Source: Actinomycetota bacterium (GTDB lineage Bacteria; Actinomycetota; Humimicrobiia; Humimicrobiales; Humimicrobiaceae). Taken from it: a DNA stretch of 59,029 nucleotides. A program made the translations under genes and the position numbers. Of this stretch, positions 23,737-57,088 are shown in pieces. The notes beneath the pieces are model-generated. The model was not told the DNA's origin. It saw only the letters and a list, made by a program, of their open reading frames with translations, and made no database searches. The first letter of the stretch is position 1; every line of letters begins with the position of its first letter. The DNA lies in assembly GCA_051744245.1 (NCBI GenBank), contig JBNJCV010000001.1, positions 1-59,029 on the forward strand. The letters are read 5' to 3'.

Positions 23737-23747
23737 GGGGACTGGCA

Positions 23748-25652: not shown

Positions 25653-25661
25653 GGGTGAAAA

Positions 25662-27307: not shown

Positions 27308-27328
27308 CATTTAGAAGGATTGTTACAA

Positions 27329-37875: not shown

Positions 37876-37952
37876 CTTCCATATATGATTGTAACAAGTT
37901 AGTAATTATCATATAATTTATTTTATTAATATTGTTAAGGAAAGGAGCAAAT

Positions 37953-39650
37953 TTGAAAAGCGACATTGAAATAGCACAAGCGGCAGAGATGAGGAATATA
38001 GGAGAAATTGCTGAATTGGTAGACCTGGATGAAAAATATCTGGAGCTATACGGGGATTATAAGGCGAAGGTTGACTTGTCAGTGTTAGATGCCTTAAAGG
38101 ATAGGCCAAATGGCAAGTATATCGATGTTACGGCAATAACCCCTACCCCCCTGGGGGAAGGGAAGACCGTAACCACCATAGGCCTTAGCATGGCATTGAA
38201 TAAGATTGGCAAGAAAACAGTAACCTGTATAAGGCAGCCATCGTTGGGGCCTGTCTTTGGTATTAAAGGCGGTGCAGCTGGAGGAGGAAATTCACAGGTG
38301 CTTCCCATGGAGGACTTTAACCTGCACCTTACCGGGGATATCCATGCAGTTGGGGTAGCTCATAATCTGCTGGCAGCATTCCTTGATACACACATTATGA
38401 AAGGGAATGAACTGGACATTGACCCCTTTAGCATTTCTCTTAACAGGGTAGTTGATGTTAGTGATAGGGCCCTGAGAAATATAATTGTAGGGCTGGGGGG
38501 AGAGCTTAATGGGATTCCCAGGGAAACAGGTTATGATATTACTGTGGCTTCTGAGGTTATGGCCATACTAGCCTTGACCACAGGGCTGAAAGATTTAAGG
38601 AAAAAGCTTTCCAGGATGACTATAGGTTCTACCAGTGACGGCAAGGCAGTTACAGCTGAAGATCTCAAATGTGCCGGTGCAATGACGGTGTTGCTTAAGG
38701 ATGCAATAAAGCCGACTTTGCTCCAAACAATTGAACATACTCCTTGTTTTGTTCATGCTGGACCGTTTGCAAATATTGCCCATGGCAATTCTTCAATATT
38801 GGCTGACCTTATCGCCACTAAACTCGGTGATTATGTGGTAACAGAGAGCGGCTTTGGGGCAGATATTGGTGCAGAGAAATTCTTTAACATTAAATGCAGA
38901 TATAGTGGCCTGAAGCCAGATGCTGTAGTTATAGTGGCAACAGTTAGAGCTCTAAAGATGCATGGAGGCGGATTTGAGTTTGTTCCTGGTCAAGGTGTTG
39001 ACGAGGAAAAGATGAATACCCCCAATGTAGAAGCAGTTCGGAAAGGCTGCGAAAATTTAGAGAAAATGATAGAAAATGTTAAGATGCATGGGATACAAGC
39101 AGTAGTGGCAATAAACCACTTTGCTGCTGATAGCCAGGAAGAAATAGATGCCATAAAAGAGAGGGCAATTGCAGCAGGTGCTGAGGATGCTGTTGTCAGC
39201 AAGGTATGGCTAAAAGGAGGAGAAGGCGGAAAAGAGCTGGCAGAGGCAGTTGCAAAAGCTGCTGAAAAACCAGGTGAATTTAAATTCCTTTATCCGCTTG
39301 ACTGGCCAATAAAGAAGAAAATTGAAACCATAGCAACAAAGATCTATGGCGCAGATGGGGTTAACTTTTTGCCCAAAGCTGAGAAAATGATTGATACATA
39401 TACAAGACAAGGATTTGATAAGCTCCCCATTTGCATGGCAAAAACCCACCTGTCACTTAGCCATGAACCAACATTAAAAGGAAGGCCAACTAATTTTACA
39501 GTTCCCATTAGGGATGTCAGGGCATCTGTAGGGGCTGGATTCTTATACCCATTATTGGGTGAGATGAGAACCATGCCTGGATTGCCAAAAGTTCCAGCCG
39601 GAACAAAAGTTGATATAGATGATGATGGGAACATAGTTGGATTGTTTTAA
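37953..39650 (+). CDS. fhs: Formate--tetrahydrofolate ligase
   Basis: LKSDIEIAQAA N-terminus and P-loop PTPLGEGKTVTTIGL. TTG at 37953 lies 5 nt after AAAGGAG; the ORF track starts at 37932. Confidence 0.95.
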   Translation: MKSDIEIAQAAEMRNIGEIAELVDLDEKYLELYGDYKAKVDLSVLDALKDRPNGKYIDVTAITPTPLGEGKTVTTIGLSMALNKIGKKTVTCIRQPSLGPVFGIKGGAAGGGNSQVLPMEDFNLHLTGDIHAVGVAHNLLAAFLDTHIMKGNELDIDPFSISLNRVVDVSDRALRNIIVGLGGELNGIPRETGYDITVASEVMAILALTTGLKDLRKKLSRMTIGSTSDGKAVTAEDLKCAGAMTVLLKDAIKPTLLQTIEHTPCFVHAGPFANIAHGNSSILADLIATKLGDYVVTESGFGADIGAEKFFNIKCRYSGLKPDAVVIVATVRALKMHGGGFEFVPGQGVDEEKMNTPNVEAVRKGCENLEKMIENVKMHGIQAVVAINHFAADSQEEIDAIKERAIAAGAEDAVVSKVWLKGGEGGKELAEAVAKAAEKPGEFKFLYPLDWPIKKKIETIATKIYGADGVNFLPKAEKMIDTYTRQGFDKLPICMAKTHLSLSHEPTLKGRPTNFTVPIRDVRASVGAGFLYPLLGEMRTMPGLPKVPAGTKVDIDDDGNIVGLF

Positions 39651-39679
39651 TATTTTTTTAATAACTTTTATTTTAAGAG

Positions 39680-40603
39680 GTGATTAAAATAGCACAGATA
39701 ATAAGCGGAAAAGAAATTTCTAAACAGATAAAAGATGAAGTTAAAGCGGAAATAAGTAAGATGGAAAAAGAAAAAGGAGCAAGGCCAGGGCTTGCAGTAA
39801 TTTTGGTTGGAGAAAACCCAGCATCGAAAGTATATGTGGCTAGTAAACAAAGAGGTTGTGAACAAGTAGGTATAAAATCAGAATCTATTAAAATGAATGA
39901 CACAGTCTCCACGGAAGATATACTTAAAGAAATTGATAAATTAAATTCAAGAAATGATATACATGGCATACTTGTGCAGCTTCCATTGCCTGAGCAGGTA
40001 GACAAAAATAGAGTGCTTGAAGCTGTTTCTCCCGAGAAAGATGTTGATGGATTCCATCCAATTAATATGGGAAGATTAGTAGCTCAGCAGGAATGCTTAA
40101 TTCCAGCCACTCCCTTAGGAGTTATTGAAATGTTGAAGAGATCCAATATCAGTTTAAAGGGTAAAAATGCAACCATGGTTGGCCATAGCGAAATAGTGGG
40201 AAAACCATGTAGCCTGCTTTTGTTAAATGAATGGGCTACTGTTACTATATGCCATATAGAAACTAAAGATCTAAAAATGCATACAGAAGACGCTGATATA
40301 CTAATAGTTGCAGCAGGAGTACCATACCTTATCAAGGAGGACATGGTAAAAGAAGGTGCCGTGGTTATTGATGTTGGTATTAATAGGATTACCAAGGACA
40401 AGGCTTCTAAAGAGCTTTTGGAATGGAGAAAAGATGATTTTGATAAAAAACAGGCAACCTTAATTGGTGATGTAGATTATCTCAGGGTTGAACCAAAGGT
40501 TAGCCATATTTCTCCTGTTCCGGGAGGCGTAGGCCCAATGACAATAGCTATGCTTCTTAAAAATACTTTAACAGCTGCTAAAAAAGCTGTTGGAATGAAA
40601 TAA
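39680..40603 (+). CDS. folD: Bifunctional methylene-THF dehydrogenase / methenyl-THF cyclohydrolase
   Basis: SKVYV..K, DVDGFHP and PVPGGVGPMT motifs, GTG start after AAGAGG. Carries an insertion of about 18-20 aa after GINR. Confidence 0.93.
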   Translation: MIKIAQIISGKEISKQIKDEVKAEISKMEKEKGARPGLAVILVGENPASKVYVASKQRGCEQVGIKSESIKMNDTVSTEDILKEIDKLNSRNDIHGILVQLPLPEQVDKNRVLEAVSPEKDVDGFHPINMGRLVAQQECLIPATPLGVIEMLKRSNISLKGKNATMVGHSEIVGKPCSLLLLNEWATVTICHIETKDLKMHTEDADILIVAAGVPYLIKEDMVKEGAVVIDVGINRITKDKASKELLEWRKDDFDKKQATLIGDVDYLRVEPKVSHISPVPGGVGPMTIAMLLKNTLTAAKKAVGMK

Positions 40604-40641
40604 GTTTATGCTAAAATTAATTCCTGGAGAGGTAGAATTTA

Positions 40642-40917
40642 ATGTATTATGCAAGGGTAATTGGAAAAATAGTTGCTACTGCAAAATATGAGGGGCTGGT
40701 AGGGAAAAAAATACAAGTCCTGCAGCCTGTAGATCTAGAAACCGGGAAAGATGAAGGAAGCTTTCTGGTAGCACTGGATTCTACTTCTTCAGGAATAGGG
40801 GATATCGTGGGTTATGAAGACGGTTCAGAAGCTACATGGGCATTTGAGGGGGAAAATATCCCCACGGATGCTACTATAGTAGCAATAATAGATAACGTAA
40901 ACATAGAAAAGGTCTGA
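40642..40917 (+). CDS. BMC vertex protein (BMC-P, EutN/CcmL family), divergent paralog 1
   Basis: 91 aa. MYYARVIGKIVATAKYEGLVGKKIQVLQPV matches the EutN/CcmL N-terminal pattern. Confidence 0.85.
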   Translation: MYYARVIGKIVATAKYEGLVGKKIQVLQPVDLETGKDEGSFLVALDSTSSGIGDIVGYEDGSEATWAFEGENIPTDATIVAIIDNVNIEKV

Positions 40918-40918
40918 A

Positions 40919-41191
40919 ATGGTTTTAAGTGAAGTTATTGGAAATGTTGTTTGCACCCAAAAAGACAAGAGCCTTAACGGTAAAAAGCTTTTAATTGTCA
41001 AAGCAATTGACCTGGATGGCAAAAGGCTTGACCCTTTTGTAGTTGCTGTTGATTTAGTTGGTGTAGGCATAGGAGAGAAAGTGTTAGTTGTAAATGGTAG
41101 TTCAGCCCGGCAGACTGACCTAACCAGGGAAAAGAGCATAGATTCTGTTATTGTAGCAAAAGTTGATAGCGTAAATTTAGGGAAAGAATAG
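40919..41191 (+). CDS. BMC vertex protein (BMC-P, EutN/CcmL family), paralog 2
   Basis: 90 aa: VIGNVVCTQKDKSLNGKKLLIV..VVAVDLVGVGIGEKVLVVNGSSAR. Confidence 0.9.
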   Translation: MVLSEVIGNVVCTQKDKSLNGKKLLIVKAIDLDGKRLDPFVVAVDLVGVGIGEKVLVVNGSSARQTDLTREKSIDSVIVAKVDSVNLGKE

Positions 41192-41192
41192 T

Positions 41193-41594
41193 TTACTTAT
41201 CTATTTCTTCAATTAGTTTTTTTACTTTTTTTTCTGTTTCTGTTCCCCCCAGTATTTTATCCGAGACCGATTTAATTATGCTTTTAGCCAGCTCTTTTTC
41301 TGATACTGCTGGGGAATATATATAAGTTTTAGAACTTTTGTCCTGGCTTAGCAGTCCCTTGTCAGCCAGGGTATTCATTGTTGACATTACTGTAGTATAT
41401 GGTATAAAGCCCTGTTTTTTTTCTGCTATTTCGCTTCTTAACATTAATTCGTGTACTTCTCTTACAGTAGTCTTTTTCTTTTCCCATACAACTTTCATAA
41501 TTGTTGCTTCCAGATTGCTTATACTGTTTAGCCCGTTTATTCCAATTTCTTCAGATTTCTTTTTTGGATTTTGCTTAGCCAATTTATCTACCAC
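41193..41594 (-). CDS. BlaI/MecI/CopY-family winged-helix repressor
   Basis: LEATIMKVVWEKKKTTVREVHELM..YTTVMSTMNTLADKGLL..YIYSPAVSEKE. No BlaR/MecR-type sensor gene is adjacent. Confidence 0.8.
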   Translation of the reverse strand: MVDKLAKQNPKKKSEEIGINGLNSISNLEATIMKVVWEKKKTTVREVHELMLRSEIAEKKQGFIPYTTVMSTMNTLADKGLLSQDKSSKTYIYSPAVSEKELAKSIIKSVSDKILGGTETEKKVKKLIEEIDK

Positions 41595-41907
41595 CTTATA
41601 TTTAAAATTTTTGAAAATACTATTACTTGATTAATTAAATGTATTTCTACCTTATACTATTTTTTTTTACAAAATAAATCAATAATAAAAAAATTATATC
41701 CTTGATATTAGCCGGAAATATTTTGCCTAACCTTAGCTGGATATTGCTAATAACAAGAGGGATAAAAAAGTTATTGGCAACCAGAGGTTTCTGAATTTTG
41801 TAAAGGCTGGCCAACCATTGCAGCCTCTTTTAAATTATTACCTTAAATTATGTCTAATTATAAATTATAATGTTGTAACAATCATTAAAGGATAAAGGTT
41901 GGCGAAA

Positions 41908-42978
41908 ATGGGAAGAATATTTGTGATAAACCCGGGATCTACCTCCACCAAGATAGGTATATTTGAAAACAGTAAAAAAATACTCAAACAGTCTGTAAGC
42001 CATGATAAGGACAGGATAGACAGCTGCAGAAAGATTATAGACCAGCTTGACTACAGGATGGGCTCCATTAACAGCTTTATTGGGGAAAATAGTATAGACA
42101 TGACCCAGATTGATTATTTTGTTGGCAGGGGAGGTTTTCTCAGGCCATTGCAGAGTGGATTGTATAGGATAAATGAAAAGATGGTTGAGGACCTGGCTGG
42201 GGAAAAGTACGGAAGGCATGCCTCAAACCTGGGGGCAGTAATAGCCTGCAACCTTGGCAAGAAGTACGGCAAGCCCTCCTTTATATTCGACCCCATATGT
42301 GTGGATGAGCTGGATCCGGTAGCCAGGATAAGCGGACACCCGCTTTTTGAGAGGAGAAGCATTTTCCATGCCTTAAACCAGAAAAAAGCTGCCAGGATAA
42401 TAGCGGAAAGGCTAAATTCAAGCTACCAGGATTTGACTCTGGTAGTAGCCCATCTGGGGGGCGGAATTACAGTGGGGCTCCACAAACATGGAAGGGTAGT
42501 AGATGTCAATAATGGTACAGAAGGGGAAGGCCCTTTCACCCCGGAAAGGTCTGGCGGAATGGAGCTGGGGAGTTTCCTAAAATATATATTTGATAATGAT
42601 CTGGACTTTGAACAAGCCTTCAGGATAGTAATGGGTGAAGGAGGCCTAGCTGCTTATTTTGGCACAGTTGACTTCAAAGAGCTGATGAAAAGGTATAAAG
42701 AAGGTGGAGATAAGAAGGTAAGAGTAGTTATAGAAGCTATGGCTTACCAGGTTAGCCAGGAAATAGCTGCCAGAAGCATTCTTGCCTGTGGAGACATTGA
42801 CGGGATAATATTTACCGGTGGCCTTTCCCATTCAGAGACTTTTGTTGATTTGATTAGGGAAAAAGTAAAACACCTGGCAAAAAACATATTTGTAATTCCA
42901 GGTGAAAATGAGCTAGAAGCGCTTGCTGAAGGGGTGGTTTTGCTTTTGGAAGGAAAAATTGAAGCCCTGGAATATTAG
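41908..42978 (+). CDS. buk: Butyrate-kinase-family acyl-phosphate kinase
   Basis: MGRIFVINPGSTSTKIGIFEN N-terminus and ASKHA fold, about 356 aa. ATG at 41908; the ORF track has TTG at 41899. Confidence 0.88.
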   Translation: MGRIFVINPGSTSTKIGIFENSKKILKQSVSHDKDRIDSCRKIIDQLDYRMGSINSFIGENSIDMTQIDYFVGRGGFLRPLQSGLYRINEKMVEDLAGEKYGRHASNLGAVIACNLGKKYGKPSFIFDPICVDELDPVARISGHPLFERRSIFHALNQKKAARIIAERLNSSYQDLTLVVAHLGGGITVGLHKHGRVVDVNNGTEGEGPFTPERSGGMELGSFLKYIFDNDLDFEQAFRIVMGEGGLAAYFGTVDFKELMKRYKEGGDKKVRVVIEAMAYQVSQEIAARSILACGDIDGIIFTGGLSHSETFVDLIREKVKHLAKNIFVIPGENELEALAEGVVLLLEGKIEALEY

Positions 42979-42979
42979 A

Positions 42980-43008
42980 TTGACAATAAACAAAATATCA
43001 CATAAACT
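42980..43008 (+). promoter_or_regulatory. Candidate sigma-70 promoter for the deoR-BMC transcription unit
   Basis: TTGACA (42980-42985), 17 nt, TAAACT (43003-43008), about 27 nt upstream of the deoR ATG. Confidence 0.4.
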
Positions 43009-43034
43009 AATAACAAATAACAATATTAAACATC

Positions 43035-43799
43035 ATGTTATCTGCAGAAAGAAAATTAGAGATAGCAAAAATTATAAATGAAAATGGAAAGATTAAGACC
43101 TCTGAGCTTTCCAAAAGGTTCAATGTTTCAGAAATGACTGTGCTAAGGGATCTTGCATCGCTCGAGGAAGAGGGCGTGCTTAAAAGGGTTTATGGAGGGG
43201 CGCTTGCTTTCAATGATTCTTCAAATGAAATTTCTTCGGTTTTCAGGGGGAAAATTAACCGTAAACAAAAGGATAGCATTGCCTCCAAAGCACTTTCCTT
43301 AATTACCGATGGTTCCAGCATTTATCTGGACAGTTCTACCACCTCTCTATCTTTGGCCAAATTAGCTGCGTCCAAAATAAACATTACCCTGGTTACAAAT
43401 GGCTTAGATATTATAAATGCGGCAAAAGGGAATGGGAAAATAAAGATAATATGTCCTGGCGGAGAACTTAATGATGTTAACATGAGTTTTTATGGCCCTT
43501 CTGCTGAGAAATTCATGGAAGATGTAAATGTAAATATTGCTTTTATTTCTGCAGCAGGGATATCATTGAAATCAGGAATAACAGAGCAGAATCCACAGAA
43601 CATTGCTATAAAAAAAATAATGGTTAAAAATTCTGATATTTCGGTGTTGCTGATTGATTCCAGCAAATTTGATAAAATTACTTTAAATAGGGTTTGCTTA
43701 TTGCAAGATATTGATACTATAATTACTGATAAGGAACCGGCCTCACAATATGTGGAGCTTTTTAGAAATAATGATATTAAATTACTTTACTGCTCATGA
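43035..43799 (+). CDS. DeoR-family transcriptional regulator (sugar-phosphate sensing type)
   Basis: N-terminal HTH (ELSKRFNVSEMTVLRDLASLEEEGVLKRVYGGA) plus a DeoR C-terminal sensor domain. Its stop overlaps the next BMC-P start (ATGA). Confidence 0.88.
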   Translation: MLSAERKLEIAKIINENGKIKTSELSKRFNVSEMTVLRDLASLEEEGVLKRVYGGALAFNDSSNEISSVFRGKINRKQKDSIASKALSLITDGSSIYLDSSTTSLSLAKLAASKINITLVTNGLDIINAAKGNGKIKIICPGGELNDVNMSFYGPSAEKFMEDVNVNIAFISAAGISLKSGITEQNPQNIAIKKIMVKNSDISVLLIDSSKFDKITLNRVCLLQDIDTIITDKEPASQYVELFRNNDIKLLYCS

Positions 43800-44089
43800 G
43801 ATTAGGAAAAGTTATCGGGAATGTAGTTTCAACTGTTAAACATGAAAAGCTAAAGGGGATAAAACTTTTAGCCATAAAACCGGTAGGCCCTGATGGCTAT
43901 ACCGGGGGCAGGAAAATAATAGTGGCAGACTATCTTAATTCTGCAGTGGGTAGCCTAGTTTACTGGATTGAAAATGGGACCACAATTTGTAAGGTTATGG
44001 GAAGGAAGAGCATTCCGCTGAGGGGCTCGGTTGTTGGGCTGGTTGACAAGGTTGATTTAGATTCAAGAAAAAAAGTAATAGACGGTTGA
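43796..44089 (+). CDS. BMC vertex protein (BMC-P, EutN/CcmL family), divergent paralog 3
   Basis: 97 aa: MRLGKVIGNVVSTVKHEKLKGIKLLAIKPV. Confidence 0.85.
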   Translation: MRLGKVIGNVVSTVKHEKLKGIKLLAIKPVGPDGYTGGRKIIVADYLNSAVGSLVYWIENGTTICKVMGRKSIPLRGSVVGLVDKVDLDSRKKVIDG

Positions 44090-44095
44090 TGGAAA

Positions 44096-44362
44096 ATGAA
44101 GCTGGTAAAAGTTATTGGAAGTGTGACTTCAACTATTAAGGATGAAAGCCTGAGGGGGTTTAAACTTCTTTTAGTGCAGAGGGTAGAAGTGGACCTTAAG
44201 GGCAAGCAGGATTATTATGTGGCAGTGGATACAGTTGGAATGGGTGAAGGTGAAGTTGGCCTTATAGTTACCGGCAGTACTGCAAAAAGAACTGAGCAAA
44301 CCAGAAAGAAAAATGTGGATGCGACTATAGTCGCAAAAGTTGATAGGATAGATTTGAGGTAA
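44096..44362 (+). CDS. BMC vertex protein (BMC-P, EutN/CcmL family), paralog 4
   Basis: 88 aa: MKLVKVIGSVTSTIKDESLRGFKLLLV..YVAVDTVGMGEGEVGLIVTGSTAKR. Confidence 0.9.
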   Translation: MKLVKVIGSVTSTIKDESLRGFKLLLVQRVEVDLKGKQDYYVAVDTVGMGEGEVGLIVTGSTAKRTEQTRKKNVDATIVAKVDRIDLR

Positions 44363-44363
44363 T

Positions 44364-45695
44364 ATGGCTAAAAAAGAAATTGATATAATAAGAGACGCAG
44401 GCATTGTGGGAGCTGGGGGAGCGGGATTTCCCACCCATGTCAAGCTGGATGCTCAGGTTGACAACTTAATTGTTAATGCGGCAGAGTGTGAGCCCTTGAT
44501 AAATGTGGACAAGCAGCTATTAGAAAGATATTTCAGTGATGTTTACCGGGGCTTAAAAGTAGCTGCTAGCTTGACTGGAGCTAAAAAGGTTACAATAGCA
44601 TTAAAGGGTAAATACAAAAAGGCGATACAGTCGGTTAAAGATTTAAAGAAAGAGGGTCTTGACTTTGAAATATTTGAACTGGACAATTTCTATCCGGCAG
44701 GAGACGAGCAAGTACTGGTAGATGAAATCGTGGGCAGGATAGTGCCCGAGGGTGGAATACCCTTGATGGTGGGATGTGTGGTAATAAATGTTGAAACCCT
44801 TCTAAATATAGCAAAGGCTATGGATGGTACAAGTGTTACCGGCAAATATTTAACTGTAGGTGGAGCGGTAGCAAAGCCTTCTACTTTTATGGTACCGGTG
44901 GGTACCCCGGTAAAGCAGCTTTTGGATTATGTTGGGGGGATTACCGAAAATGATTATGCTGTTTTTGACGGAGGGCCCATGATGGGCAAGCTAATTGATG
45001 AGGAAAGCTATGCAGTAAAGAAAGTAACCAAGTCAATACTTGTGCTTCCTGAAGGCAATATTGTTACTGTGCAGAGAAAGAGAGACAGCGGCGGGCAGAT
45101 AAAAAGGGCGCAGTCAATTTGCTTGAGCTGCAGGATGTGCACGGACCTCTGTCCCAGGTACTTGCTGGGACATGACCTTTTCCCTGATGAGATGATGAAA
45201 AAGCTGTATAAAGACAATATGGACGAAGAAGATATAAAAAATTTTGATTTTGCTTACCTGTGCTGTGATTGCGGTTTGTGCGAGCTTTACAGTTGTGTGG
45301 TTGACCTTTCACCAAGGGCATTGTTTAATTACCTTAAGGATGAATTAGCCAAGCGGGGTATAAAGAATCCACATAACAGAAAAGATGTGCAATCTAATGA
45401 ATTTAAGGAATTCAGGAAGGTGCCTGTGGACAGGTTGAAAAACAGACTGGAGATTGACAAATATGATGTGGAGACTCCTTTAACTGAGTTTGGGGAAGAA
45501 GTAAGCGAGGTTAAACTCTATCTCAGCCAGCATGTAGGAGCGCCTTCAAAACCAGTGGTAAATGCCGGGGATAAGCTAGAAGCTGGCAGTCTGGTGGCTG
45601 ACATACCGGAAGAAAGCTTGGGAGCAAAAATACATAGTTCTATTTCTGGAAAGGTTAAGGAAATAACTTCTGAATATATTTTGGTGGGTAAATGA
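44364..45695 (+). CDS. PduS/RnfC-like flavo-iron-sulfur oxidoreductase
   Basis: NuoF-like nucleotide/FMN loop GIVGAGGAGFPTHVKL. Two 4Fe-4S motifs (CLSCRMCTDLCP, CCDCGLCELYSC). A C-terminal barrel-sandwich segment resembles RnfC_N (LSQHVGAPSKPVVNAGDKL..IHSSISGKV). Confidence 0.85.
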   Translation: MAKKEIDIIRDAGIVGAGGAGFPTHVKLDAQVDNLIVNAAECEPLINVDKQLLERYFSDVYRGLKVAASLTGAKKVTIALKGKYKKAIQSVKDLKKEGLDFEIFELDNFYPAGDEQVLVDEIVGRIVPEGGIPLMVGCVVINVETLLNIAKAMDGTSVTGKYLTVGGAVAKPSTFMVPVGTPVKQLLDYVGGITENDYAVFDGGPMMGKLIDEESYAVKKVTKSILVLPEGNIVTVQRKRDSGGQIKRAQSICLSCRMCTDLCPRYLLGHDLFPDEMMKKLYKDNMDEEDIKNFDFAYLCCDCGLCELYSCVVDLSPRALFNYLKDELAKRGIKNPHNRKDVQSNEFKEFRKVPVDRLKNRLEIDKYDVETPLTEFGEEVSEVKLYLSQHVGAPSKPVVNAGDKLEAGSLVADIPEESLGAKIHSSISGKVKEITSEYILVGK

Positions 45696-46267
45696 TGGCA
45701 GATTATAGCAATATTTGCGTATTGGAATTTAAAAGCGTATCCAGGGGCATACAGGTGACAGATAGTGCGGTAAAGGCAGCAGAAGCCAACCTGGTAATTG
45801 CAACCTCCCTATGCCCGGGAAAATATTTAACAGTTTTGGAAGGAGAGATGGATGCACTGGAGACTGTAGCTCAGACGGCAAGAATTGAAGGAGGCATGCA
45901 TCTTTACAGTGAAATGGTTATAGGGGGAATAGATTTAAAAGTTATTGATGCCATTAGTGGGAAGGTAGCGGATTTGCCCCTGGGAGCAGTGGGGATAATT
46001 GAAAGCATGCAAATGGCACCCATTATAAATGCGGCTGATATTTGTGTAGATAGCGCTGATGTAGAGTTTTTGGATTTCAGGCTGGCCAGGGGATGTGGGG
46101 TCAATAGTTTCTTTTTAATTACCGGTACCCTGTCTGCGGTAAAGGAAGCAGCTGGCAAAGCTTCTAGTTTCTTAAGTGAGAGGGGCGCTTTAATTGGGGA
46201 GAGGATAATTGCAAATCCTGACAAGGAAGTTGCCAGGTGGCTTAAGTCTTCTTTATGCAGGTGTTAA
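45692..46267 (+). CDS. Tandem-domain BMC shell protein (BMC-T), PduT-like with pore Cys
   Basis: 191 aa with two BMC domains. The first has the PduT-type motif SLCPGKYL. ATGA overlap with the upstream PduS-like gene. Confidence 0.85.
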   Translation: MMADYSNICVLEFKSVSRGIQVTDSAVKAAEANLVIATSLCPGKYLTVLEGEMDALETVAQTARIEGGMHLYSEMVIGGIDLKVIDAISGKVADLPLGAVGIIESMQMAPIINAADICVDSADVEFLDFRLARGCGVNSFFLITGTLSAVKEAAGKASSFLSERGALIGERIIANPDKEVARWLKSSLCRC

Positions 46268-46286
46268 ATGAGGAAAGGGATAATTT

Positions 46287-47105
46287 ATGGCTAATAAAAG
46301 TGAGAGTGAATACAGAAAAGATATAATAGAAGTTTGCAAAAGGATTTACCAGAAAGGGTGGGTTGCCGCCAATGACGGAAATGTATCCGTAAAGCTGGGA
46401 GATAACCTTGTACTATGTACCCCTACAGGGATGAGCAAGGGTTACCTTACCACTGACCAGCTGGTAAAAGTGGATTTAAATGGGAACAAGATAGAAGGCG
46501 AGCTGGAGCCTTCTTCAGAGGTAAAGATGCATATAGATGTCTATAAAAACCGTAGTGACATAAATTCGGTAGTGCATGCTCATCCCCCTACGGCAACAGG
46601 GTTTGCGGTAGCCGGGGAGGCATTGGACCAATGTGTTATTCCTGAAGTAATAATTTCCCTTGGCTCAGTACCGCTGGCTAAATTCGGGACTCCTTCAACC
46701 CAGGAAATACCTGATAACATAAGGGGATATTTGCCAAAGCATAATGTGTTTTTACTGGAAAACCACGGTGCCCTGTCTATAGGCCCTGATGTTTATAAAG
46801 CTTATTACAGGATGGAAAGCCTGGAATTGTTTGCAAAGATATATCTTACCGCAAAGCAGATAGGCCAGGTAAATGTGTTAAGCGAGGAAAATGTTGAAAG
46901 AATGGTACAGCTAAGACAGGATTGGGGAATGGATGAGCATTATGCAGGATGCAGGATTAACGGAACGGTTGTAGATCAGGTAAATTATAATGACAAGGGT
47001 ACAGGTAGTGACAATGACGGTGATGAAATGATTACTATAAGTAAAAAGGAGCTTACTTCCCTTATTTCAAATATTGTTTCCAATATCGTAAATAAAGGTG
47101 GTTAA
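46287..47105 (+). CDS. Class II (Zn-dependent) aldolase/epimerase family protein, FucA-like, with C-terminal extension
   Basis: FucA-type residues: SSEVKMH (Glu), VVHAHPP (2 His) and LLENHGALSIG (His). A C-terminal tail of about 55 aa ends in the amphipathic helix KKELTSLISNIVSNIVNK. Confidence 0.85.
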   Translation: MANKSESEYRKDIIEVCKRIYQKGWVAANDGNVSVKLGDNLVLCTPTGMSKGYLTTDQLVKVDLNGNKIEGELEPSSEVKMHIDVYKNRSDINSVVHAHPPTATGFAVAGEALDQCVIPEVIISLGSVPLAKFGTPSTQEIPDNIRGYLPKHNVFLLENHGALSIGPDVYKAYYRMESLELFAKIYLTAKQIGQVNVLSEENVERMVQLRQDWGMDEHYAGCRINGTVVDQVNYNDKGTGSDNDGDEMITISKKELTSLISNIVSNIVNKGG

Positions 47106-47171
47106 CCCTATAAAAAAATAAAATTTCATTTATAATGATAAAATCGTAAACCAATAAAAAAGGAGAGAAAA

Positions 47172-47447
47172 ATGGCAGGAGAAGCAATCGGATTAATTGA
47201 AACAAGAGGACTTGTAGGATCAGTTGAAGCGGCAGACTCAATGGTAAAAGCTGCAAATGTTACCCTAATGGGGCAGGAAAGAATCGGCGGAGGTCTGGTA
47301 ACTGTGTTAGTTAAGGGCGATGTTGGCGCGGTTAAGGCAGCAGTTGATGCTGGCGCAGCCGCAGCTAAAAGAGTAGGGGAGCTGCTTTCAGTACATGTTA
47401 TCCCTAGGCCGCACCAGGATCTTGATTTGATTTTACCTAGTGAGTAA
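47172..47447 (+). CDS. BMC hexamer shell protein (BMC-H, PduA/EutM-like)
   Basis: 91 aa: [42 protein letters not shown]. Strong AAAGGAGAG RBS. Confidence 0.95.
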
Positions 47448-47480
47448 AAAAATTGTTAATTAAAAGAGAGGTATTTTAAA

Positions 47481-48467
47481 GTGGATACCGAAAAATTAAT
47501 CAGAGATGTAGTGGTTAGTGTAATGAAGCGGCTGGAAAATGAAGAAGTACCTCAAACCAGGGCTAAATCTAGCCAGATTTCAAATCAGGAAGACAAGGTG
47601 AAGGTTTCAGGCCGAAAGGTGGTTTGCGGAGTATCTGTAAGGCATGTCCACTTGTGCAGGGAGCATTTGGAGATACTTTTTGGCAAAGGCTATGAGCTGA
47701 GCGAGCTAAGGGAACTTTACAATCCCGGATTTGCAGCTAAAGAGACAGTAACGATAGTAGGTCCTAAATTAAATGCTATCCAGAATATCAGGGTATTGGG
47801 ACCCCTGAGAAGCAAATCACAGGTAGAATTGGCCAAAACTGATTGTGTTATCTTAGGAATTGATGCTCCAGTAAGGCCTTCCGGCAGTGTGGAAGGCAGT
47901 GCTTCGGCGGTAGTAGTTGGGCCTAAAGGTGTGGTTTACCTCAAAGAAGGAGTAATACGGGCAAACCGCCATATGCACATGTGTCCCGATGATGCGCAAT
48001 ATTTTGGCTTAAGCGATAATGATAAAGCGGATGTGAGGATCCCAGGCCCAAAGGGCCTTACCTTTAATAATGTCCAGGTTAGGGTATCAGCGGATTTTAA
48101 AACAGAGATGCATGTAGATACAGATGATGCCAATGCTGCAGATATTGTAAACGGCACCTTGGTGGACATAGTGGATGCCTCATGCATTGCACCGCTTGAA
48201 GCGCAGATGGCCGAGAAAAATGGTACCCCGCCAAGCATACCTGACGGAAGTTTTGCCGGGGAGATAACAGATACAAATGTTGCCCAAAGTATTAGAAGCA
48301 GCATGGCAGGAAAACAGGACGGCCAGCAGCCTTCCGCAAAAAAGATAGTTATTACAGTGGAAAATCTGGATGAATACAAGGATAGCGGGATAAAGCTATC
48401 GGATAATGTAATCCTTTCTCCGCTGGCTAGGGATGAAGCTAAGGAAAGAGGTATTAAGATTTATTGA
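47481..48467 (+). CDS. pduL: Phosphate acyltransferase PduL with N-terminal encapsulation-peptide-like helix and a C-terminal extension of about 110 aa
   Basis: Two PduL repeats with GVSVRHVHL and ANRHMHM. The N-terminus is EKLIRDVVVSVMKRL plus a linker. GTG start after AGAGAGG. Confidence 0.88.
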   Translation: MDTEKLIRDVVVSVMKRLENEEVPQTRAKSSQISNQEDKVKVSGRKVVCGVSVRHVHLCREHLEILFGKGYELSELRELYNPGFAAKETVTIVGPKLNAIQNIRVLGPLRSKSQVELAKTDCVILGIDAPVRPSGSVEGSASAVVVGPKGVVYLKEGVIRANRHMHMCPDDAQYFGLSDNDKADVRIPGPKGLTFNNVQVRVSADFKTEMHVDTDDANAADIVNGTLVDIVDASCIAPLEAQMAEKNGTPPSIPDGSFAGEITDTNVAQSIRSSMAGKQDGQQPSAKKIVITVENLDEYKDSGIKLSDNVILSPLARDEAKERGIKIY

Positions 48468-48497
48468 TAAAAAGTTTTAAAAAACAGGGGGTAAGAT

Positions 48498-49916
48498 GTG
48501 GCTATAGATGAAAAAACGGTTGAAAAAATAGTAAGGAGTGTAGTGGATAACCTGGCTGGCAGCCAAAATGCTAGCAGCTTAAAGGCTTCGTCTATTGCTA
48601 CTTCTAAAGATGGCTTATTTGACAATATAGAAGATGCAATTAAGGCAGCTAAAACAGCCCAGCAGAAGCTTTCTGCCATGGGAAAAGATATAAGGTATAA
48701 GATTGTTGACTCCATAAAGGAAGCCTGCAGGGAGCATGTTGAAAGGCTGGCCAGGATTACAGTAGATGAAACTGAGATGGGAAATTATGAAGACAAGGTT
48801 TTAAAGGTTCAAGTTTCCATTGACTATTCAGTGGGTCCTGAAGACCTGGAAATAGAAACATACAGCAGTGACAGCGGGACCCAGACTTTTGAAATGGCGC
48901 CCTGGGGGGTAATTGGGGCAATAACACCTATGACCAATCCGACGCCTATGATTATAAATAATTCAATAGTTATGATATCAGCAGGAAATTCTATTGTTTT
49001 TCTTCCCCATCCAAAGGCTAATAAGTGCACCCTGGAAGCCTTCAAGATTGTGCACCAGGCTATAGTGGATGCGGGAGGACCACCCAATCTTATAACCGCT
49101 ACCAGGGAAGCGAAAATAAAGAATGTTTCTAATATTTTTAAAAGCCCGGATGTGGACATGATATGCGCAACTGGGGGCCCTGCAATTGTGGAGCTTTCCA
49201 TGAAAAGCGGGAAAAAGGCGATTGGTGCAGGACCTGGCAATCCACCGGTGATCGTAGATGATACTGCTGATATTGCCAAAGCAGCAGAAGAGATAGCATT
49301 TGGAGCTGCATTTGACAATAATGTACTGTGCAATGATGAAAAAATAATAATCCTTATGCGCAGCATTGCCGATAAGTTTTTGTCTGAAATTGCCAGGCAC
49401 AATACAGTAGTCCTCAATGCTGACCAGGCTTCTAAGGTTACAGATTTAGTGGTAAAGGATAATGAGATAGTCAAAGAGCTGATGGGAAAAGACTGCACGG
49501 TTCTCCTTAAGAGGGCAGGAGCAGATGTTGGGGGGCAGCCTAAGCTGGCAGTGTTTGTGGCAGACTCTGAATCGCATCCGCTGGTTCAGCATGAACAGCT
49601 TCTGCCGGTGGTTCCTATACTGCTGGTGGACACTTTTGAGGAAGCAGTGGAAATTGCGGTAAGAGTTGAGCATGGCTTTAAGCATACTGCAATGATACAT
49701 TCAAACAACTTGGAGAGGATAACTAATTTCGGGCAGAGAATTGGTACCACGAATTATATAGTAAACGGCCATTCCCAGAGGAGTGCCGGTAAAGTTTCTG
49801 AAGGCGGAACAGCCTGGACTTTGGCTGGAGCTACAGGAGAAGGACATGCTTCACCAAGAACGTTTACCAGGCAGAGGAAGATCACTTTTTACGGTTCCAT
49901 GAATTTTGTGAAATAA
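48498..49916 (+). CDS. CoA-acylating aldehyde dehydrogenase (PduP/EutE family) with N-terminal encapsulation-peptide-like helix
   Basis: N-terminus EKTVEKIVRSVVDNL plus a Ser-rich linker. ALDH core with the catalytic Cys context AFDNNVLCNDEK. Confidence 0.9.
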   Translation: MAIDEKTVEKIVRSVVDNLAGSQNASSLKASSIATSKDGLFDNIEDAIKAAKTAQQKLSAMGKDIRYKIVDSIKEACREHVERLARITVDETEMGNYEDKVLKVQVSIDYSVGPEDLEIETYSSDSGTQTFEMAPWGVIGAITPMTNPTPMIINNSIVMISAGNSIVFLPHPKANKCTLEAFKIVHQAIVDAGGPPNLITATREAKIKNVSNIFKSPDVDMICATGGPAIVELSMKSGKKAIGAGPGNPPVIVDDTADIAKAAEEIAFGAAFDNNVLCNDEKIIILMRSIADKFLSEIARHNTVVLNADQASKVTDLVVKDNEIVKELMGKDCTVLLKRAGADVGGQPKLAVFVADSESHPLVQHEQLLPVVPILLVDTFEEAVEIAVRVEHGFKHTAMIHSNNLERITNFGQRIGTTNYIVNGHSQRSAGKVSEGGTAWTLAGATGEGHASPRTFTRQRKITFYGSMNFVK

Positions 49917-49945
49917 AAACCTGATTTCGAAAGGAGTTCTAACCG

Positions 49946-50329
49946 ATGAATGGCGACGCCATAGGATTAATAGAGACCAGAGGTTTGGTAGGCTCAACTG
50001 AGGCGGCAGACACCATGGTAAAGTCTGCCAATGTTAAGCTAATTGGCAAGGCTTATGTGGGCAGCGGATATGCAGCAGTTATGGTTTCCGGTGATGTTGG
50101 AGCTGTAAAAGCTGCAGTTGATTCAGGCTCTGCGGCAGCCAAGAGAGTAGGGGAAATTATAAGTGTGCATATAATACCCAGGCCTCATCCGGATATAGAA
50201 AAAATTATTAGCGGCAAGGCTGTAAGGTCAGGAAGGGGAACTTTCCCCAAGTCCAGAACCCCCAAGCATAGAGGTGGTTCTAAAGGCAGCAAGAAGGGCG
50301 GAGGCTCTAAGGGCAAAAAAAAGAAATAA
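49946..50329 (+). CDS. BMC-H shell protein with Lys/Gly-rich basic C-terminal tail
   Basis: The BMC domain ([27 protein letters not shown]..) is followed by [34 protein letters not shown]. Confidence 0.9.
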
Positions 50330-50343
50330 GGCGGAATTAGCTT

Positions 50344-50892
50344 ATGGAAAAATCTATAGGAATAGTAGAATTCCGTAGCATTGCAATCGGAATAAGCGCT
50401 ATAGACAAAATAGTTAAGGCATCAGATGTCAGGATAGTTGATGCCAAAACCATGTGCCCTGGAAAATACTATATTATTTTTTCGGGCAGCGTTAGTGCTG
50501 TTTCTAATTCCATGAATATTATTAGAGAAGAAGAAGAGACGTTTATCATAGATTCAGTTAATATATCCAATGTTTATCCTGAGATATATCCAGCTATGTT
50601 TCAGACAGCCAAGATAGGAGAATGGAAAGCAATAGGGGTAATAGAAACCATAACCTCGCCATCTATATTTGCAGCAGCAGATGCTGCAGTTAAGGCAACT
50701 TCTATAGATTTAGTGGAGATAAGGGTGGCCAGGGCCCTTGGCGGAAAAAACATGGTAATAATTAACGGGGATGTATCTTCTGTAAATGAAGCCATAAGGG
50801 CAGGTATAAGTTATCCGCAAAAAAAGGATTTTTTAGTAGACTACAGGGTAATAGCATCACCACATAAAGATTTATACAGGGCAATAATGTAG
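50344..50892 (+). CDS. Tandem-domain BMC shell protein (BMC-T), second PduT-like paralog
   Basis: 182 aa with two BMC domains. The first carries TMCPGKYY, the PduT-type pore Cys. Confidence 0.85.
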   Translation: MEKSIGIVEFRSIAIGISAIDKIVKASDVRIVDAKTMCPGKYYIIFSGSVSAVSNSMNIIREEEETFIIDSVNISNVYPEIYPAMFQTAKIGEWKAIGVIETITSPSIFAAADAAVKATSIDLVEIRVARALGGKNMVIINGDVSSVNEAIRAGISYPQKKDFLVDYRVIASPHKDLYRAIM

Positions 50893-50894
50893 TT

Positions 50895-52175
50895 ATGAAA
50901 GTTAATTTAGATTATGGAAGCAAAAAACTGGGAATTGATATTCCCGATAAAAATTTACTTTATATACTGGAAACTAAACCAGTAGAGCCTATTGCCAATC
51001 CCAAGCAAAAAATCATTGACTCCCTTTACCATCCAATAAATTCACCACCTTTAGGGGACCTGGTGGGAAACAGCCAGGATATCTGCATAGTTATTTCAGA
51101 TATAACCCGGGCAGCACCTACAAAACTTATTTTGCAGGCTTTGCTTTCTGAGCTGGCTACTTTTGGAATAGGCAGGGATAAGATTACCATACTTATAGCA
51201 ACCGGGCTGCACAGGCCTAATGTTGGAGAAGAGCTGGAGCAGCTGGTTGGAAAAGAAATCAAGGAAAATTACAGGATTGTCAACCATAATGCAAGGGATA
51301 GGAGTTCCTGCAAAAATATTGGTAAAACCAAGAGGGGCACTCCGGTAATTTTAGACAGAGTATACCTGGATGCAGATTTCAGGATACTTACCGGGCTGAT
51401 TGAGCCCCATTTTATGGCCGGATTTTCCGGCGGGAGAAAAGCCATATGCCCGGGCATAAGTTATATGGATATGTTCAAGCATTTCCATGGCCCGCCCATA
51501 CTGGAATCCCCTAATGCTACAACCGGGGTGCTGGAAGGAAATCCCTTCCATGAAGAAGCAACAGAGATTGCAAAGATGGCGGGTGTAGATTTTATAGTAA
51601 ATGCAACCATAAACAAGGAAAAACAAACTACTGGCATCTTTAGCGGGGACTTGGAAGAAGCTCACCGCAAGGGAGCAGAATTCTGCCTTAAATCAAGCCA
51701 GTGCAGCATAAGAGAAGAAGCAGACATAGTTATAACTACAGGCGGAGGGCTTCCCTTGGATGCTACCCTTTACCAGGCAGTTAAGGGCATGGTGGGCTGC
51801 TTGCCTGCAGTTAAAAAGGGCGGAATGATAGTAGTGGCCTCTGAATGCAAAGAAGAGATTGGAAGCAAGGAATTTACAGACCTTCTAACAGGGGAGGAAG
51901 ATTTAGATAAGTTCATGGATAGGATTTGCAATACAGATTATTTTGAGATTGACCAGTGGGAGCTTGAGGAGTTGGTTAAGGCAAGGAAAAAAGCTGACAT
52001 TTATTTTTACAGCGATTGTATCCTAAATTGTTCTTACAGCATTCCCCCCAATACATTAAAAACAATTAATTCCATTCAGGAAACAATTGGTGCAGGCTTA
52101 AAAAAATACGGTGAGAATGCTAAGATTACGGTGATTCCGGAAGGGCCTTATGTGATTCCTGTTTTGGAAGAATAA
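50895..52175 (+). CDS. larA: LarA-family nickel-pincer-dependent 2-hydroxyacid racemase/epimerase (lactate racemase-like)
   Basis: 426 aa. LarA landmarks are ATGLHRP (His), EPHFMAGFSGGRK (His plus the cofactor-tethering Lys) and an FKHFHG His. Confidence 0.85.
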   Translation: MKVNLDYGSKKLGIDIPDKNLLYILETKPVEPIANPKQKIIDSLYHPINSPPLGDLVGNSQDICIVISDITRAAPTKLILQALLSELATFGIGRDKITILIATGLHRPNVGEELEQLVGKEIKENYRIVNHNARDRSSCKNIGKTKRGTPVILDRVYLDADFRILTGLIEPHFMAGFSGGRKAICPGISYMDMFKHFHGPPILESPNATTGVLEGNPFHEEATEIAKMAGVDFIVNATINKEKQTTGIFSGDLEEAHRKGAEFCLKSSQCSIREEADIVITTGGGLPLDATLYQAVKGMVGCLPAVKKGGMIVVASECKEEIGSKEFTDLLTGEEDLDKFMDRICNTDYFEIDQWELEELVKARKKADIYFYSDCILNCSYSIPPNTLKTINSIQETIGAGLKKYGENAKITVIPEGPYVIPVLEE

Positions 52176-52225
52176 ATTATAACTTTTATAAATCAAAATT
52201 TAAGTTGGATACGGAGACTTTAAAC

Positions 52226-53602
52226 ATGGAAGAGAAACAAGTAAAAAAAATAGAAGAAATAGTAGGAAAAGATTCGGCAATAACTGAAGTAGAAGACCGT
52301 ATTGCCTATGGCTATGATTCAACCAGGCTTGAATATCTCCCTGACATAATTGTCAAGGTTAAAAACACAGAACAAGTAAGTAATATATTAAAATTTGCCA
52401 ATGAATACAGTATCCCGGTTACCCCCCGGGGAGCTGCTACCGGGCTTAGCGGCGGCTGCTTGCCGGTTAAAGGAGGGATACTTCTGGTAATGGTGGGCAT
52501 GAACAAAATCTATGATGTCAACCCCGTGGACTTGCTGGTAGATGTTGAGGCAGGGGTAATAACCGAGGCCGTGGACAAGAAGGTAGCGCCTTTTGGTTTG
52601 TTTTATCCACCTGATCCCGGAAGCTTGAGCAGTTCCACTATTGGCGGTAATATAGCTGAGAATGCGGGAGGCTTGAGGGGCTTAAAATATGGTGTTACCA
52701 AGGATTATGTAAATGGAATGGAAGTGGTGCTTCCCACGGGGGAAGTAACCCAGCTGGGCACCAGAACTGTCAAAGGAGTTACCGGATACAACCTTAAGGA
52801 TTTAATAGTGGGCTCTGAAGGAACATTGGGAGTAGTCACCAGGGCTACCCTTAACCTGCTGCCTATTCCCCCCGAAAGGGCAAGTTTGCTTGCATTGTTT
52901 TCAAAGCTTACAGATGCTGCCAAAGCAGTAAGGGGTATAGTCTCTGAAGGGGTAATTACTTCTACTCTTGAGATTATAGATAATGTTACCATTAATGCCA
53001 TTGAGGATTACCTGAAGGTAGGATTGGACAGAGATACAGGAGCAATGCTGCTAATTGAAGTAGATGGCCAGAAAGGGGCCGTGGAGATTGAAGCAGAAAT
53101 AGTTAAAAAAGTATGCAAAAAAAATAATGCTACTTCCTGTGAACTAGCTACTTCCGGCAGGCAGAGGGACTCTTTATGGGCTGCAAGGAGGGCTGCGCTA
53201 TCATCACTTGCCAGGGTTAAGCCTTCAACTATACTTGAGGATGCCACCATACCCAGAAGCAAGATAGTGGAGCTGGTAGAAGCGGTAAACAGGGTTGCTG
53301 AAAAATACGGGTTGAGGATTGGTACTTTTGGCCACGCGGGAGATGGAAATTTGCACCCCACCATACTTACTGATTTAAGGATAGAAAAGGAGGCTGAAAA
53401 GGTTGAAAAAGCAGTGGAGGAAATTTTTGAAGAGACAGTAAAGCTGGGAGGAACTTTATCCGGTGAGCATGGTATTGGGATAACCAAAGCAAAGTATTTA
53501 AAGATGGAAGTTCAGCCGGAGGCTTTTGAGCTTATGAAGAGGGTAAAAAAGGCTTTTGATCCTAATAATATACTTAATCCCGGTAAAATGAGTTTTGAAT
53601 AA
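52226..53602 (+). CDS. FAD-linked oxidase, GlcD / D-lactate dehydrogenase-like
   Basis: FAD-binding PCMH domain (PVTPRGAATGLSGG) and C-terminus GTLSGEHGIG..FDPNNILNPGK. ATG at 52226 lies 9 nt after GGAG; the ORF track has TTG at 52205. Confidence 0.88.
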   Translation: MEEKQVKKIEEIVGKDSAITEVEDRIAYGYDSTRLEYLPDIIVKVKNTEQVSNILKFANEYSIPVTPRGAATGLSGGCLPVKGGILLVMVGMNKIYDVNPVDLLVDVEAGVITEAVDKKVAPFGLFYPPDPGSLSSSTIGGNIAENAGGLRGLKYGVTKDYVNGMEVVLPTGEVTQLGTRTVKGVTGYNLKDLIVGSEGTLGVVTRATLNLLPIPPERASLLALFSKLTDAAKAVRGIVSEGVITSTLEIIDNVTINAIEDYLKVGLDRDTGAMLLIEVDGQKGAVEIEAEIVKKVCKKNNATSCELATSGRQRDSLWAARRAALSSLARVKPSTILEDATIPRSKIVELVEAVNRVAEKYGLRIGTFGHAGDGNLHPTILTDLRIEKEAEKVEKAVEEIFEETVKLGGTLSGEHGIGITKAKYLKMEVQPEAFELMKRVKKAFDPNNILNPGKMSFE

Positions 53603-53629
53603 AAATTATAATATAGTTAAGGCAGAGCA

Positions 53630-54814: not shown

Positions 54815-54829
54815 ATGGAGGTAAAAAAA

Positions 54830-57083: not shown

Positions 57084-57088
57084 TCCTA

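Follow-up and report, generated by a model that had tools for sequence, protein, structure and literature searches.

A PduS-type NADH dehydrogenase and pore-cysteine shell trimers as candidate electron conduit of a microcompartment locus without alcohol dehydrogenase in Actinomycetota

The window analysed here, 59,029 nucleotides of contig JBNJCV010000001.1 (assembly GCA_051744245.1) from an Actinomycetota bacterium of the Humimicrobiaceae, carries a bacterial microcompartment (BMC) locus (genes 40642-50892), in which the gene of a PduS-type flavoprotein, MNdh, is followed directly by that of a trimeric shell protein (BMC-T) with PduT fold, here called T1. A second BMC-T with a pore cysteine, T2, is encoded further downstream in the locus. 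In our judgement this region is likely to be the cofactor-recycling module of a MIC4-type metabolosome, i.e. of an incomplete core without alcohol dehydrogenase (ADH or AlcDh). NADH reoxidation by MNdh and export of the electrons via the pore cluster of a BMC-T is well supported by sequence features and by analogy. This is the route which the initial annotation had proposed for the NADH of the aldehyde dehydrogenase (AldDh); all of its sequence observations are borne out, and every sequence feature by which MNdh/BMC-T^SE pairs are recognised is found here. The electron-conduit interpretation itself is not new. Because the mechanism has been proposed for loci without ADH and demonstrated in vitro with a homologous pair, it is a rediscovery of a published hypothesis (PMC11626177), of which the present locus is a further ADH-less example.

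Co-purification of PduS with PduT, together with the suggestion that electrons pass out of the compartment, was reported early (Parsons 2010, PMC2982820), and the idea of electron export was raised for loci which have neither B12 enzymes nor AlcDh (Axen et al. 2014). The pair was later renamed MNdh/BMC-T^SE (Sutter et al. 2024, PNAS, PMC11626177). In that study MNdh is found in 2,172 loci, with an adjacent BMC-T in 97% of them; the pair occurs without AlcDh in 361 loci, and 1,725 of the loci with MNdh also have AlcDh. The Clostridium botulinum proteins copurify, oxidise NADH with a kcat of 20 s^-1 and allow reduction of the BMC-T cluster to be followed by electron paramagnetic resonance (EPR), and the Fe-S potentials of the complex are -147, -217 and -349 mV (PMC11626177). 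For PduT a potential of +99 mV is given (PMC2982820). Complex formation, NADH oxidation and Fe-S signals are expected for our locus from this literature on homologues.

The MNdh protein of 443 residues (44364-45695) contains the Pfam domains Complex1_51K (9-150), SLBB (163-208), Fer4_17 (253-315) and RnfC_N (381-438), which gives the domain order PF01512, PF10531, 4Fe-4S dicluster (PF13534) and PF13375 of four-domain MNdh proteins. The glycine-rich FMN/NADH loop GAGGAGFP is present (GIVGAGGAGFPTHVKL), and so are two cysteine motifs, C253xxC256xxC259xxxC263 and C300xxC303xxC306xxxxC311, as expected for the NuoF-type flavoprotein with two 4Fe-4S motifs that had been read from this gene at the outset. 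Loop and cysteine motifs are kept in 119-120 of 120 homologues, and the cysteine spacing is identical to that of C264-C274 and C309-C320 in PduS of C. freundii. RnfC (7ZC6, E 3e-49) is the closest solved structure and shares the FMN/NADH site and the two [4Fe-4S] clusters. RnfC, however, has its barrel-sandwich domain at the N-terminus and works with the membrane Rnf complex, whereas residues 371-435 at the C-terminus of MNdh align with RnfC residues 22-84, and no other rnf genes are located beside MNdh. This circular permutation of the RnfC_N domain to the C-terminus is the hallmark that sets PduS/MNdh apart. Salmonella genes annotated as cobalamin reductase PduS show about 40% identity over 95% of the length. 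The coupling to T1 is tight: the TGA stop of MNdh (45693-45695) overlaps the T1 start codon at 45692 by 4 bp (ATGA, junction AAATGATGG), so that the overlap with a PduT-like BMC-T, likewise noticed initially, lies at 45692-45695. Thus MNdh adjoins a BMC-T with CPGK pore motif in a locus that also encodes an acylating AldDh. The same four-domain flavoprotein with permuted RnfC_N, the same cysteine spacing and an adjoining tandem BMC protein with CPGK are described for MNdh/BMC-T^SE (PMC11626177) and PduS/PduT (PMC2982820), and a locus with acylating AldDh but without AlcDh is the case for which the electron export by the former pair was proposed (PMC11626177).

T1 (191 residues) and T2 (182 residues) each contain two non-permuted PF00936 stretches in one chain, as PduT-type tandem proteins do, and both have the equivalent of PduT Cys38 within CP(G/S)K. 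In T1 this is Cys41 (SLCPGKY), whose counterparts in the alignments are the cysteine of TICPGKF in C. freundii PduT (3PAC) and position C38S in Salmonella PduT (3N79); the CPGK cysteine is kept in 120 of 120 homologues (P0121-P0240). T1 has additional cysteines. Of 120 homologues, 118 share a second one at a pore position, Cys135 in domain 2 (RGCGV), and about 106 end, like T1 with its C189-x-C191, in C-x-C. When the domains are aligned separately, the domain-2 cysteine shares its column with the domain-1 pore cysteine, which is the column of the first Gly of the BMC-H pore motif, while PduT, 3NWG and T2 carry Ile or Leu at the Cys135 column. Because both cysteines fall in one column, a T1 trimer would show six pore cysteines (three Cys41 and three Cys135). 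The AlphaFold2 monomer model of T1 has a mean pLDDT of 89 and matches 3N79, 3PAC and 3NWG in Foldseek with TM values of 0.85-0.93; the domain-2 pore loop has a pLDDT of about 70, and since residues 189-191 are below 50 the model is silent on the position of the CxC tail relative to the pore. As T1 bears additional conserved cysteines, selection on metal binding is suggested. The domain-2 pore cysteine and the C-terminal CxC are not mentioned for PduS/PduT or MNdh/BMC-T^SE in the descriptions of these pairs we compared (PMC2982820, PMC11626177). Six pore cysteines are described for GrpU (PMC6325248), but GrpU is a permuted single-domain Fe-S hexamer (BMC-H) with the motif GxCPQ(N/H) from GRM loci, whereas T1 is a non-permuted tandem BMC-T with PduT fold.

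T2, encoded five genes downstream of MNdh, has the pore motif TMCPGKY at the Cys38 position (E 9e-39 to 3NWG, 4e-31 to 3PAC), in agreement with the second PduT-like BMC-T initially noted at 50344. All 21 related loci long enough to include T2 retain its C(P/A)GK cysteine. According to the published survey, a pore cysteine is generally missing from BMC-T^S proteins whose genes lie apart from MNdh (PMC11626177); T2 departs from this, as it keeps the cysteine though it does not adjoin MNdh. A second pore-cysteine BMC-T encoded five genes away is also a difference to the MNdh/BMC-T^SE pairs. In other genomes, the genes of the nearest outgroup relatives of T2 (about 37-40% identity) directly follow those of MNdh. 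T1 and T2 were first handled as equivalent, which does not hold: they share 28% identity and each is conserved as a separate orthologous group. T2 is the canonical type and T1, the one coupled to MNdh, the divergent one. When GTDB species representatives were scanned with a degenerate pattern, T1-type proteins turned up in 32 genomes; nearly all of these belong to uncultured Actinomycetota, among them Ca. Humimicrobium oleiphilum UBA1414 and Humimicrobiaceae. T1 thus belongs to a lineage-restricted BMC-T subfamily of uncultured Actinomycetota, and this is one of the new details.

The gene order MNdh-T1 is found in every related locus that holds both genes (about 35 loci). Because it recurs in all of them, this arrangement is not due to chance. 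The order P3-P4-MNdh-T1, where P3 and P4 are the two vertex-protein (BMC-P) genes preceding MNdh, is conserved as well.

An alcohol dehydrogenase could not be detected in the window. Pfam scans of essentially all window open reading frames (ORFs) of at least 85 residues gave no PF00465, PF08240, PF00107 or PF00106 and no member of the Ldh family. In a six-frame tblastn search, FucO, EutG, AdhP and Mdh of E. coli and a short-chain dehydrogenase/reductase (SDR) from a related locus gave a best E of 0.7. The early observation that the locus has no ADH-family ORF therefore extends to the 59 kb, and of the canonical metabolosome core (AldDh, phosphotransacylase and AlcDh) the AlcDh is missing. Because only 59 kb are visible, this absence is one of the window and not of the genome. 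Among 39 related loci no Fe-ADH is present, and the sole Zn-ADH (L039) lies about 5 kb upstream of the BMC block. We rejected it as a hidden BMC enzyme because it lies that far away and shares a cluster of its own with genes for a GntR regulator, 2-hydroxyacid dehydrogenase, class II FBP-type aldolase and PIG-L deacetylase.

The genes of the locus and its flanks are listed below with the basis of each assignment.

37932-40603, same strand as the BMC block: Fhs and FolD
40642-40917 and 40919-41191, plus strand: two BMC-P (EutN/CcmL) vertex proteins (PF03319, E 4e-23 and 7e-25)
41193-41594, minus strand: BlaI/MecI-type (Penicillinase_R) repressor (PF03965, E 3e-20), same position kept in relatives
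41899-42978, plus strand: butyrate-kinase-family acyl kinase (TIGR02707, 424 bits with a cutoff of 289; PF00871)
43035-43799, plus strand: DeoR-family regulator of the sugar-phosphate type (PF00455, PF08220)
43796-44089 and 44096-44362, plus strand: two further BMC-P directly 5' of MNdh (PF03319)
44364-45695, plus strand: MNdh, PduS-type NADH dehydrogenase, 443 residues (Pfam architecture, RnfC match)
45692-46267, plus strand: T1, BMC-T shell trimer with PduT fold, 191 residues (alignments, AlphaFold2, Foldseek)
46287-47105, plus strand: class II (FucA-type) aldolase (PF00596, E 4e-47)
47172-47447, plus strand: BMC-H hexamer shell protein (PF00936, E 8.5e-30)
47481-48467, plus strand: PduL-type phosphotransacylase (PF06130, E 2e-68, residues 49-221 only)
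48498-49916, plus strand: acylating aldehyde dehydrogenase (NF011927, 525 bits with a cutoff of 403)
49946-50329, plus strand: second BMC-H, whose C-terminal tail of about 35 residues is rich in Lys and Gly (PF00936)
50344-50892, plus strand: T2, BMC-T of canonical PduT type, 182 residues (alignment to 3NWG and 3PAC)
50895-52175, plus strand: LarA-family 2-hydroxyacid racemase (gaps between LarA, GlcD and GlcF 2-29 bp)
52205-53602, plus strand: GlcD-type FAD dehydrogenase
53630-54814, plus strand: GlcF/HdrD-like Fe-S CCG protein
54815-55258, plus strand: GcvH lipoyl carrier (PF01597), starting at the base directly after the GlcF stop and overlapping the RACo gene that follows

The MIC4 assignment follows Supplementary Data 2 of PMC8217296 and is based on gene content, not on the clade colours of shell proteins. 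The locus contains an AldDh with N-terminal encapsulation peptide, a phosphotransacylase, a pfam00596 aldolase, a pfam00871 kinase, PduS and a pore-cysteine BMC-T, and no AlcDh. The related metagenome-assembled genome ADurb.Bin346 (L036), a member of the same synteny family, carries the MIC4 label in the Sutter 2021 dataset. The published description of MIC4 gives one PduT-type BMC-T and is silent on LarA, on GlcD/GlcF and on any Wood-Ljungdahl context (PMC8217296). It also gives a triplet of BMC-P genes, sometimes plus one, and four are found here. Other locus types were rejected. For PDU or EUT no domain of a B12-dependent diol dehydratase or ethanolamine ammonia-lyase is encoded between 40642 and 54814, and Pfam scans likewise bear out the early remark that the BMC locus has no B12 enzyme. 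For SPU neither a DeoC-type aldolase (pfam01791) nor RpiB (pfam02502) is present, the aldolase being PF00596, and for PVM the defining enzyme is absent from the window. PVM and the fucose/rhamnose BMCs of type GRM5 resemble our locus in having a C-extended class II aldolase, a DeoR regulator, AldDh, PduL and a kinase. However, in PVM compartments NAD+ is thought to be recycled by an enzyme of the lactate/malate dehydrogenase family, and GRM5 loci have a glycyl-radical diol dehydratase and a Zn-ADH; none of these is encoded in the window.

The FucA-type aldolase, probably the signature enzyme of the locus, keeps the FucA residue E73 and the Zn histidines H92, H94 and H155. Its C-terminal extension of about 55 residues ends in an amphipathic 14-mer helix that resembles an encapsulation peptide. 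Similar helices are found at the N-termini of AldDh (KTVEKIVRSVVDNL) and PduL, and none on LarA, the kinase or MNdh; terminal helices of this kind are usually the signature of encapsulated cargo and would mark these three enzymes as such. PduL is in addition extended at its C-terminus by about 100 residues (229-328, ending in VILSPLARDEAKERGIKIY) that match no Pfam family. The catalytic Cys of AldDh aligns with that of EutE (DNNVLCNDEKI), and from its family AldDh can be taken to be the producer of NADH. The acyl kinase is predicted to convert acyl-phosphate to the acid with formation of ATP. The butyrate-kinase-family gene is restricted to closer relatives, and many relatives are without it.

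Combining these assignments, the aldolase in the shell would cleave a ketose-1-phosphate to dihydroxyacetone phosphate (DHAP) and an aldehyde, most likely lactaldehyde. Acylating AldDh would convert the aldehyde to acyl-CoA with production of NADH, and PduL together with the butyrate-kinase-type kinase would lead from acyl-CoA via acyl-phosphate to the acid and ATP. MNdh would sit on the lumenal side of a BMC-T trimer (T1 or T2) and reoxidise the NADH, with electrons running from FMN over the two [4Fe-4S] clusters and the pore-cysteine cluster of the BMC-T to a cytosolic acceptor. It would follow from electron export via MNdh/BMC-T that all aldehyde could be oxidised and none would have to be spent as alcohol. 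Because a LarA racemase and a GlcD/GlcF dehydrogenase are conserved directly downstream, the acid product is suggested to be a 2-hydroxyacid. Most likely this would be lactate from lactaldehyde, as in fucose/rhamnose catabolism, which would be oxidised further in the cytosol, with LarA, GlcD and GlcF acting as cytosolic follow-up enzymes conserved together with the BMC block. DhaL- and DhaK-type dihydroxyacetone kinase subunits are encoded at 21056-22703 between lepA and the NuoEFG-like genes, and no DhaM was seen; as the aldolase would release DHAP, they may be relevant to triose handling.

In the window the BMC block lies between Fhs-FolD and LarA-GlcD-GlcF-GcvH-RACo, on one strand and with gaps of -17 to 38 bp. 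The block from MNdh to T2-LarA-GlcD-GlcF-GcvH is conserved in relatives, which is a further new detail, mostly within Wood-Ljungdahl genes (placement was recorded for L001, L003, L005, L009-L013, L017-L020, L022, L027, L030, L035 and L038). Fhs/FolD lie upstream in 10 of the 13 loci with at least 4.8 kb of upstream sequence. Downstream follow LarA-GlcD-GlcF-GcvH and in part RACo, with GcvH after GlcF in nine of nine informative loci, an order that persists where Fhs/FolD are not upstream. Relatives such as L001, L003, L007, L017 and L020 have the BMC block after LepA, a small ORF, Fhs and FolD, and there neither NuoEFG nor the genes of carbon monoxide dehydrogenase/acetyl-CoA synthase (CODH/ACS) are adjacent. 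In four loci without upstream Fhs/FolD (L006, L024, L025 and L035), BMC-H and a thiolase-SDR-CoA-transferase set lie directly 5' of the P3-P4-MNdh block (in L006 at 5504-9248). One may speculate that this set provides an alternative reductive outlet or an added compartment function.

As cytosolic acceptors, ferredoxin, the neighbouring CODH/ACS with its RACo activases and the NuoEFG-like module had been named at first, but none of these candidates finds support here. Because the Fe-S potentials of the homologues are -147 to -349 mV and +99 mV, low-potential ferredoxin and CODH/ACS would be poor sinks for electrons from NADH, and RACo would take a repair-level trickle at most. Nor does gene neighbourhood speak for CODH/ACS or the NuoEFG-like module as acceptors, since their adjacency to the BMC block is not conserved in the relatives. 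The export of NADH electrons would fit an organism with the CO2-reducing Wood-Ljungdahl pathway as sink. A GlcF-type CCG (HdrD-like) Fe-S protein encoded beside the lipoyl carrier GcvH is a hint of thiol-disulfide chemistry.

The absence of ADH from the window could have another background, namely that the compartment recycles its NAD+ by a conventional alcohol or other dehydrogenase encoded in a satellite locus, with MNdh/BMC-T being auxiliary or condition-specific as in Salmonella Pdu, where both coexist. Satellite loci are common across BMC types, most loci with MNdh (1,725) also carry AlcDh (PMC11626177), and a thiolase-SDR-CoA-transferase set with BMC-H is present in the four loci mentioned. 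We nevertheless regard this explanation as rather improbable: no ADH, SDR or Ldh is encoded in the 59-kb window and no Fe-ADH in the 39 related loci, the only Zn-ADH is the one in the GntR-headed sugar cluster of L039, and the SDR of L006 is without N-terminal extension. Much less probable is that the pore-cysteine BMC-T proteins are mainly structural or gated tiles and that NAD+ and NADH are exchanged across the shell. Some PduT-type proteins keep the pore cysteine without a PduS partner (SPU2, PMC8217296), and Salmonella knockouts of pduS or pduT only grow more slowly (PMC11626177). The pore cysteine is, however, present in all 120 T1 homologues and all 21 T2 orthologues, T1 has further conserved cysteines, and the MNdh and T1 genes are tightly coupled.

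We also give hardly any credit to the view that the PduS homologue is a cobalamin reductase serving the corrinoid iron-sulfur protein (CoFeSP) of the adjacent Wood-Ljungdahl genes instead of recycling NAD+. The CoFeSP genes are indeed in the window (AcsC at 36526, AcsD at 31409), but the BMC locus has no B12-dependent enzyme, CoFeSP has its own activators in the two RACo genes of the window, and the MNdh-BMC-T block is unchanged where CODH/ACS is not adjacent or where, as in L006, no Wood-Ljungdahl genes lie upstream. It has also been argued that the RnfC-like fold leaves scant room for cobalamin (PMC11626177). An inward flow, by which Fe-S pores and flavoprotein import cytosolic reducing power (from GlcF or ferredoxin) for NADH formation or lumenal reductions, appears to us very improbable, too. 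RnfC-type modules are reversible in principle, and two Fe-S BMC-T paralogues occur beside a conserved GlcD/GlcF oxidoreductase. Against this, the sole NAD-linked enzyme with an encapsulation peptide is the NADH-producing AldDh, the locus encodes nothing that would consume electrons in the lumen, such as a radical-SAM activase or a reductase, and EPR and voltammetry of the homologues favour the direction from NADH to BMC-T (PMC11626177).

Several points weigh against electron export through MNdh and the BMC-T pores. An ADH could exist in a satellite locus elsewhere in the genome, of which 59 kb are visible. MNdh is only about 40% identical to characterised homologues. Its termini are without a helix resembling an encapsulation peptide, and its lumenal location therefore rests on analogy. 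The putative cluster of T1 may differ from that of canonical BMC-T^SE, because T1 departs from the latter by its added cysteines. Finally, O2 is the sole acceptor shown in vitro for the characterised pair (PMC11626177), while our host is presumably a strict anaerobe because CODH/ACS genes are present.

With respect to regulation and transcription, an Rfam scan of the whole window gave no family reaching the gathering score, and thus no riboswitch accounts for the 700-bp gap at 41192-41898. In this gap's vicinity an ORF of 98 residues (41338-41634) was treated as spurious; it is of low complexity, has no Pfam match and overlaps the BlaI-like gene on the opposite strand. The related locus L005 has a BlaR1-like M56 peptidase beside the BlaI/MecI-type repressor, a neighbour not found in the window. 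Scanning 37800-57200 for promoters and terminators was no better than scanning shuffled sequences (49 versus 43 promoter-like and 17 versus 20 terminator-like sites). Because these counts match the shuffles, operon boundaries can not be set in this way, and co-transcription is favoured solely by the short gaps (0-38 bp) and overlaps.

Among the other genes of the window, the NuoE/F/G-like trio (22834-26264) is not accompanied by a hydrogenase or formate dehydrogenase catalytic domain in the window. Its NuoE-like 2Fe-2S subunit of thioredoxin fold (22834-23736) has a FUR-family domain at its N-terminus, and another gene of this family, separate from it, lies 3.5 kb downstream (27320-27787). The two RACo paralogues are encoded upstream of CODH/ACS (28571-30523) and after GcvH (55242-57083), where the latter ends the BMC-linked gene string. 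Two short adjoining ORFs at 9835-10567 match only the C-terminal half of the AldDh family (profile positions 255-339 and 377-461), and together appear to be what is left of a truncated and frameshifted gene located 3' of leuS. A literature search joining 'Humimicrobi' and 'microcompartment' retrieved no paper.

A more far-reaching idea, to which we assign a low probability, is that T1 represents a distinct class of redox tile with a fully Cys-ligated or an extra Fe-S centre and a potential unlike that of PduT, that T1 and T2 would form two electron gates, and that the fixed order Fhs-FolD, BMC block and LarA-GlcD-GlcF-GcvH-RACo would make CO2 reduction or a GlcF/GcvH thiol-disulfide system the dedicated sink for NADH. 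If true, a BMC electron conduit would thereby have a physiological acceptor pathway assigned to it for the first time. With its pore cysteines in both domains and its CxC tail T1 would offer a natural test of how ligand number relates to the potential of a shell-embedded cluster, a question that is also relevant to engineered electron-conducting compartments. For the organisms themselves, the analogy with the characterised pair suggests that uncultured and probably acetogenic Actinomycetota use the MNdh/BMC-T^SE solution in a MIC4 compartment without ADH, and a BMC wedged in Wood-Ljungdahl genes together with LarA, GlcD/GlcF and GcvH is a concrete place to seek the acceptor used in vivo.

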